Of a stretch of 48,240 nucleotides of DNA, positions 41,201 through 42,034 are shown piece by piece. This DNA is from Chthoniobacterales bacterium (GTDB lineage Bacteria; Verrucomicrobiota; Verrucomicrobiia; Chthoniobacterales; JBKEAD01). Position 1 is the first letter of the stretch, and the number at the start of each line of letters is the position of its first letter. The position numbers and the translations under genes were made by a program. Location: NCBI GenBank assembly GCA_047971915.1, contig JBKEAD010000050.1, positions 1 through 48,240 of the forward strand. Direction: 5' to 3'. Under the pieces are notes generated by a model. The model was not told where the DNA came from, made no database searches, and saw nothing but the letters and a program-made list of their open reading frames with translations.

Positions 41201-41806
41201 GACAGCGGAGACGATATCGATCCCGGTATCATTAAGCAGGTAAAAGTTTACATCGCCTCGAAACGCAAACTCTCGGTTGGGGATAAAATGGCAGGCCGCC
41301 ACGGAAACAAAGGTGTCGTTGCCAAAATCGTCCCTGAAGAAGATATGCCTTTCTTAGAAGACGGCACGCCGGTTGACATCGTTCTAAACCCTCTTGGCGT
41401 TCCAAGCCGCATGAACGTCGGGCAGGTTCTCGAAACGCACCTTGGCGTTGCCGCCAAAGCTCTCGGCTTTAAAGTCGCAACACCTGTCTTTGATGGTATT
41501 TCTGAAAAACGCATTCGCGAATACCTCGAAGAAGCCAAGCAAGTCGAAGGTTTCACCTGGATCGAAGAAAACGGTAAGGCAAAGCTTTACGACGGACGCA
41601 CCGGCGAATCCTTTGACCAAAATGTCGTTGTCGGCTACATCTATATGTTGAAACTCGGCCACTTGGTCGCCGATAAGATTCACGCCCGTGCCGTCGGCCC
41701 ATACAGCCTTGTCACGCAGCAGCCGCTTGGTGGTAAAGCCCAATACGGCGGACAACGTTTCGGAGAGATGGAAGTCTGGGCACTCGAAGCCTACGGAGCC
41801 GCCTAG
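38213..41806 (+). CDS. rpoB: RNA polymerase beta subunit, residues 1-1197 (ends at in-frame TAG)
   Basis: [43 protein letters not shown] and [19 protein letters not shown]. Confidence 0.97.
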
Positions 41807-42034
41807 ATGCTCCAAGAACTTCTCACCGTCAAATCCGACGACGTGCAGGGACGAACGCGCATTTACGAAAATATCGTAAAAGGCGACAACTCGCTGAGTG
41901 CCGGAATACCGGAATCCTTTAACGTTTTAATCAAAGAAATGCAGGGACTCGGCCTCGATGTCAAAATTGGCAAAGAAGGCGGAGAATCTCCAACTACTCC
42001 AAGCCCAAGTAAAGACGACGAGGCAGCCGCCTAA
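41807..42034 (+). CDS. rpoB: RNA polymerase beta subunit C-terminal 75 aa (same frame, ATG directly after the TAG)
   Basis: [26 protein letters not shown]...[20 protein letters not shown] is the conserved beta C-terminus. Confidence 0.93.

Follow-up and report, generated by a model that had tools for sequence, protein, structure and literature searches.

Does the window hold a naturally divided gene for the β subunit of RNA polymerase, or does a single wrong letter give an ordinary gene the appearance of two? The window, by which the whole analysed stretch of 48,240 nucleotides is meant, is contig C101 of a draft metagenome-assembled genome (MAG) of a Chthoniobacterales bacterium (Verrucomicrobiota). 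This assembly amounts to 2.47 Mb in 261 contigs, with a completeness of 91.9% and a contamination of 0.01%. A TAG codon stands in frame within its rpoB, directly before an ATG, and the initial annotation offered three readings of this arrangement: a translationally coupled two-piece β subunit, readthrough of the TAG, and a single-base miscall of a tyrosine codon, TAC or TAT.

The rpoB locus and its in-frame stop

Around the stop, the window reads ...GAA GCC TAC GGA GCC GCC TAG ATG CTC CAA GAA..., and the features of the locus are as follows.

38213..41806, + strand: upstream piece of rpoB, 1197 codons and the TAG (ORF list, translation, Pfam)
41795..41798, + strand: GGAG, made of the Gly-Ala codons GGA GCC, 8 nt 5′ of the ATG (sequence)
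41804..41806, + strand: in-frame TAG at a conserved Tyr position (sequence, translation, relatives)
41807..42034, + strand: downstream piece of rpoB, 75 codons and a TAA, opening with the ATG at 41807 (ORF list, Pfam)
42071..46195, + strand: rpoC, 1374 aa, uninterrupted (ORF list, Pfam Rpb1 domains 1-5)

The one uninterrupted reading frame of a bacterial rpoB is broken here by the TAG at 41804-41806. The upstream piece matches the Pfam families Rpb2_1, Rpb2_2, Rpb2_3, Rpb2_45 and Rpb2_6 together with profile positions 1-19 of Rpb2_7, and the downstream piece corresponds to profile positions 21-84 of the same last family (PF04560). When the stop was written as X, the read-through translation showed the Rpb2 domains 1, 2, 3, 45, 6 and 7, all present and in the correct order, and RNA_pol_Rpb2_7 (PF04560) crossed the TAG, with the break at profile position 20 of 87. 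Since PF04560 lies on both sides of the TAG, the two pieces are one gene that is broken by one codon. When solved polymerases were searched, the region aligned to E. coli β residues 1178-1339, and the ends of this alignment put the TAG at about residue 1285 in that numbering. The description in the initial annotation, with TAG directly before ATG and both halves in frame, is borne out by the letters, the ORF list and Pfam, and the GGAG that it placed 8 nt before the ATG is indeed at 41795-41798.

The surroundings of the gene are conventional. rplA, rplJ and rplL lie 5′ of rpoB and rpoC lies 3′ of it, so that the window shares both domain order and flanking genes with an ordinary bacterial rpoB in the rplKAJL-rpoBC cluster, from which it differs by one codon, TAG in place of the TAC or TAT of its relatives. 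The encoded protein is 93.9% identical to the orthologue in G001, the only other genome of the same genus. ARAGORN reported a tRNA-Asp (GUC) at 44921-44988 on the - strand, within rpoC on the opposite strand, which is probably a false positive, and Rfam at gathering scores detected no RNA family in the whole window.

The part of the gene behind the stop is well conserved. The first 55 codons after the TAG differ from those of G001 by nine synonymous and no nonsynonymous substitutions (dS 0.29, dN 0), while for the 1197 codons before the TAG dN is 0.031 and dS is 1.38. With a dN of 0, the downstream piece is not decaying. This conservation excludes only an old truncation, and an error, a very recent mutation and a functional split fit it equally well. 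The genome holds one copy of each piece; neither a second rpoB, for which the initial annotation had suggested a search, nor a second C-terminal piece was found in it.

The stop position in other genomes

The rpoB region was detected at the DNA level in 39 of 40 relatives, and the codon at the position of the TAG was tallied at 29 stored loci. All 29 have Tyr there (25 TAC, 4 TAT). The following codon is ATG solely in G001; it is ACN (Thr) in 27 of the others and CTC in one. G001 reads GGA GCC GCT TAC ATG CTG, or ...GAAYMLQE... in protein letters, so that its GCT TAC ATG CTG stands against GCC TAG ATG CTC in the window, and its Tyr codon is one base, C to G, away from the TAG. The TAG-ATG that the initial annotation proposed to look for among relatives is accordingly absent from them, and the Met at the next position recurs solely in G001 among the 29 loci. 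Moreover, the GGAG and the Met are both present in the uninterrupted G001 gene, which indicates that they are ordinary sense codons of the genus rather than start signals that have evolved for a second gene.

A wider survey was made in metagenome and genome collections with a degenerate DNA pattern for EAYGAA-(TAN)-MLQEL, in which any TAN codon was allowed. It matched 54 metagenome loci and 81 genome stretches, and all of these 135 matches carry TAC (107) or TAT (28), with no TAG or TAA among them. The nearest match, in a Chthoniobacterales MAG, is 87.8% identical and the next one 80.9%. With a best match of only 87.8%, the survey yielded no further assembly of this species. When about 15 billion proteins were searched for exact matches, neither rpoB piece was among them, so that there is no independent sighting of either. 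The stop is therefore a single-base change from the sense codon of the nearest relative and is private to this assembly, and that relative has the uninterrupted AAYMLQE that the initial annotation had named as evidence against a split.

Short C-terminal fragments of β are frequent among public gene calls. A search with the 75-aa piece gave 1003 short proteins at E <= 0.001, and among the 25 of these that were examined, some begin at LQELL or immediately before it and others have N-termini that are unrelated and frameshift-like, on contigs of up to 212 kb. Seven of the proteins (P0015, P0043, P0032, P0041, P0011, P0037 and P0096) are short RpoB C-terminal calls from long contigs with an apparently broken rpoB. 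Such calls, whether they start at LQELL or look frameshifted, indicate that broken rpoB calls near this place recur in draft assemblies. A call with this exact stop did not appear among the 135 DNA pattern matches. A limited literature search on premature rpoB stops in MAGs found nothing specific.

Isolated stops in the two draft genomes of the genus

Because the interruption of rpoB is a single codon, whether it is more than a chance event can be judged only against a genome-wide control. For this control, a junction was defined as two dominant ORFs, one with a minimum of 80 codons and the other with a minimum of 60, that share a frame and have a single stop between them; the filter misses stops that lie less than 60 codons from a gene end, and the test sees stop-creating substitutions only. 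The genome has 221 such junctions (32 TAG, 44 TGA, 145 TAA), of which 162 were scanned with Pfam after the stop had been written as X, comprising 32/32 TAG, 44/44 TGA and 86/145 TAA. Most junctions are simply two distinct neighbouring genes, such as atpG-atpD, aroA-cmk, truB-ribF and dnaG-rpoD. At 6 of the 162 scanned junctions, a single Pfam domain spans the stop.

C101 (window): rpoB, PF04560, TAG
C261:5635-5637 (L222:979-981): nuoL-like gene, PF00361 at residues 151-436, stop at 327, TAG
C147:573-575 (L214:364-366): LacI-family regulator, PF13377 at residues 193-375, stop at 263, TAG
C250:6596-6598 (L282:661-663): murE, PF08245 at residues 67-273, stop at 221, TGA
C129:11109-11111 (L249:11017-11019): phosphoketolase, PF09364 at residues 31-351, stop at 131, TAA
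C130:16670-16672 (L299:14033-14035): glutamate synthase (gltB), PF00310 at residues 27-440, stop at 221, TAA

Similar isolated stops thus occur elsewhere in the assembly and in genes that are not all dispensable; indeed, the interrupted single-copy core genes include two indispensable ones, rpoB and murE. At two of these sites, relatives point to an event like that in rpoB. In nuoL, the window's genome has GCT TAG TCC where G001 has GCC TAC TCC, and Tyr is found in 9/9 relatives. In murE, TAC TGA CTC stands against TAC GGA CTC in G001, with Gly in all 4 relatives where the site was located (of 7 loci). The phosphoketolase site is Asn (AAC or AAT) in relatives, but as these are distant, the Asn is no guide to the original codon. 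For the LacI-like gene, an assignment of the original residue was given up, as a close orthologue is lacking and paralogues align too poorly. The codon after the stop could be read in four contexts, those of nuoL, the LacI-like gene, murE and phosphoketolase, and is ATG in none of them. A TAG in a DUF2339 gene (C19:607-609, L192) was set aside as doubtful, with 29.6 bits against a Pfam cut-off of 33.6 and no relatives found. Apart from these junctions, Cas5d and Cas4 domains on another contig of the same genome (C231:2-6128, L265) point to a CRISPR-Cas locus.

The reverse comparison led from 151 G001 ORFs to 103 orthologue pairs with 41,627 aligned residues, a sample that is biased since the G001 contig carrying rpoB was chosen deliberately. 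Stops were met in 17 of the 103 alignments. In 12 they lie only in the first 40 aligned positions, which belong to the leader and precede the true start; one alignment has its stop five residues from the end; three have low-identity frames with between five and eight stops each and were taken as non-coding shadow frames. The remaining one, and the only pair with a single mid-gene stop, is rpoB. No frameshift-type split was seen among the 103 pairs.

G001 itself is not free of such stops. Its nuoL (L224, G001:C124:8039-11926), a locus that was chosen because of its stops, is interrupted in frame by one TAG and one TAA at a distance of 13 codons from each other; the corresponding codons in the window's genome encode Glu and Phe. 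No mid-gene stop in G001 was found among the orthologue pairs of an unbiased 214-kb sample of this genome. Both draft assemblies of the genus therefore contain sporadic in-frame stops, and the places differ between them.

Explanations for the interruption

The window's rpoB differs from its nearest relative by a single base in the Tyr codon, the resulting stop is private, and similar stops are found in other core genes. These observations suggest that the TAG is most likely a consensus or assembly substitution, TAC→TAG, the error itself being deduced from comparison rather than seen. A change of a single base in TAC, the last of the readings in the initial annotation, is accordingly the favoured one, with at least five other isolated stops (TAG, TGA and TAA) in the same assembly on its side. 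With at least six isolated one-base stops in core genes, the stop in rpoB most likely goes back to a consensus error rather than to a natural split, and all the sites would be explained economically if substitution errors had entered the consensus at a low rate. The one-base substitution in the draft MAG consensus would most likely have arisen in sequencing or assembly, so that the wrong base would lie in the assembly rather than in a mutation of the cell, and the β subunit of the organism is most likely an ordinary one in a single piece, reading ...EAYGAAYMLQELL....

Some points speak against an error. First, the assembly looks clean, as the contamination figure indicates, and the 103 pairs hold no frameshift-type split. 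Second, at both TAG sites with a known original residue, rpoB and nuoL, this residue is Tyr, although two sites are too few to weigh. Third, termination followed by reinitiation is mechanistically conceivable at a TAG-ATG that is preceded by a GGAG at a distance of 8 nt.

An explanation close to the error places the TAG in real DNA, from a defective or minority allele or from a damaged template, that was put in the consensus while the viable lineage carries TAC. The private stop, the single-base change and the several core genes hit by all three stops form the same pattern as would an error, and the change of murE relative to G001, GGA to TGA, is G-to-T, a typical product of oxidised template DNA. 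On the assembly alone, however, this pattern is indistinguishable from plain sequencing or assembly error, and such an origin of the TAG is unlikely. Its consequence would be that of the error, namely that the functional rpoB is not split.

That the TAG is both real and fixed, whether as part of a two-piece β made by UAG-AUG reinitiation or with a supF-like rescue of amber Tyr codons, is very improbable. Natural splits of β are known in archaea and in jumbo phages, and split sites have been studied in vitro in E. coli β. In the window, ribosomes would terminate at the UAG and restart at the adjacent AUG, giving pieces of 1197 and 75 aa that together are one Tyr short. Besides the stop directly followed by a start codon behind GGAG, the full conservation of the 55 downstream codons would suit this proposal. 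A precedent for an rpoB that is naturally in two ORFs exists in some green-algal plastids: in chlorophycean plastids and in that of Leptosira, the gene is described as two adjacent ORFs, rpoBa and rpoBb, which are separated by stop codons and jointly encode β (PMC1931444). The algal break is common to several lineages and adjoins a highly variable region (PMC1931444). The break in the window, in contrast, occurs in one assembly only and falls within the conserved PF04560, neither in a variable linker nor at a domain boundary.

The comparative evidence stands against the two-piece reading as well. None of the relatives shares the split, which is absent from 29/29 relatives' loci, that of G001 included, and from 135/135 pattern matches, and the ATG and GGAG, which are sense codons in G001, cannot count as start signals of a second gene. 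Use of SD-like signals in this genome is weak, the 4-mers standing before 9.4% of 950 first-ATG starts with an about two-fold positional enrichment; a 3′ end of 16S rRNA was not recognised in the genome with a short motif. Furthermore, a two-piece β leaves the stops in murE, nuoL, gltB and phosphoketolase unexplained, and as no ATG follows the stop at four of the other sites, stop-start reinitiation cannot rescue those genes. In a limited literature search, no paper turned up that describes a bacterial β divided at this site. The translationally coupled two-piece β of the initial annotation, confronted with TAC ATG in G001, with Tyr at every comparable position and with start signals that existed before the stop, is thus highly unlikely.

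Readthrough, by which a supF-like, Tyr-inserting tRNA-Tyr with a CUA anticodon or near-cognate decoding would yield full-length β from a real TAG, fares no better. In E. coli, supF suppresses amber codons by means of a tRNA-Tyr with a CUA anticodon, and insertion of Tyr would suit both TAG sites of known original residue. Only 25 tRNA genes were detected in the window's genome, with none for Tyr; RNA genes seem to be mostly unassembled in it, as in many MAGs. Since the tRNA set is incomplete, a suppressor may be missing from the assembly. A tRNA with the CUA anticodon, for which the initial annotation had also proposed a search, is not among the 25 genes reported by ARAGORN. Against readthrough, RF1 is present and intact (447 bits against a curated cut-off of 423), and TAG closes 277 long ORFs without an excess of open frame behind it. 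In addition, the in-frame stops comprise TAG, TGA and TAA, so that no single suppressor reads them all, and the stops in nuoL of the sister MAG replace Glu and Phe codons. The window's genome, with an intact RF1, no such tRNA among the 25 and interruptions by TGA and TAA too, consequently differs from a supF strain, and readthrough of the TAG has hardly any probability left.

General reassignment of TAG to sense was rejected in view of the stop usage, the presence of RF1, the lack of PylS and the outcome of the tRNA scan. The whole genome has 1357 stop-to-stop frames with 250 codons or more, which end with 674 TAA, 406 TGA and 277 TAG, and the frame stays open for at least 100 codons past the stop in 7.9% of cases for TAG, 5.7% for TGA and 14.1% for TAA. 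RF1 has not been lost; PylS is not present in the genome (best score 31 bits, cut-off 178), and the CUA anticodon is missing from a tRNA set that is itself incomplete. Nor are the in-frame stops confined to TAG, as murE is interrupted by TGA and phosphoketolase and gltB by TAA. As for TAA, an open frame lies behind it about twice as often as behind TAG or TGA, and it accounts for 145/221 of the same-frame junctions. Since 84/86 of the scanned TAA junctions are separate neighbouring genes, this looks like tight operon spacing and not like recoding.

The interruption of rpoB is thus most likely an assembly artefact and not a real feature of the organism, and the split-gene interpretation is not supported. 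If it were true, the split would lie inside the conserved C-terminal domain of β, at a point known from no organism; it would add a new break point to an enzyme that is both essential and highly conserved, and would be a natural case of termination-reinitiation within a domain. The present value of the finding is a warning: isolated nonsense substitutions are found in core genes of both draft genomes of this genus (rpoB, murE, nuoL, gltB and phosphoketolase), and gene calls, pseudogene counts and reports of split genes from either draft require read support.
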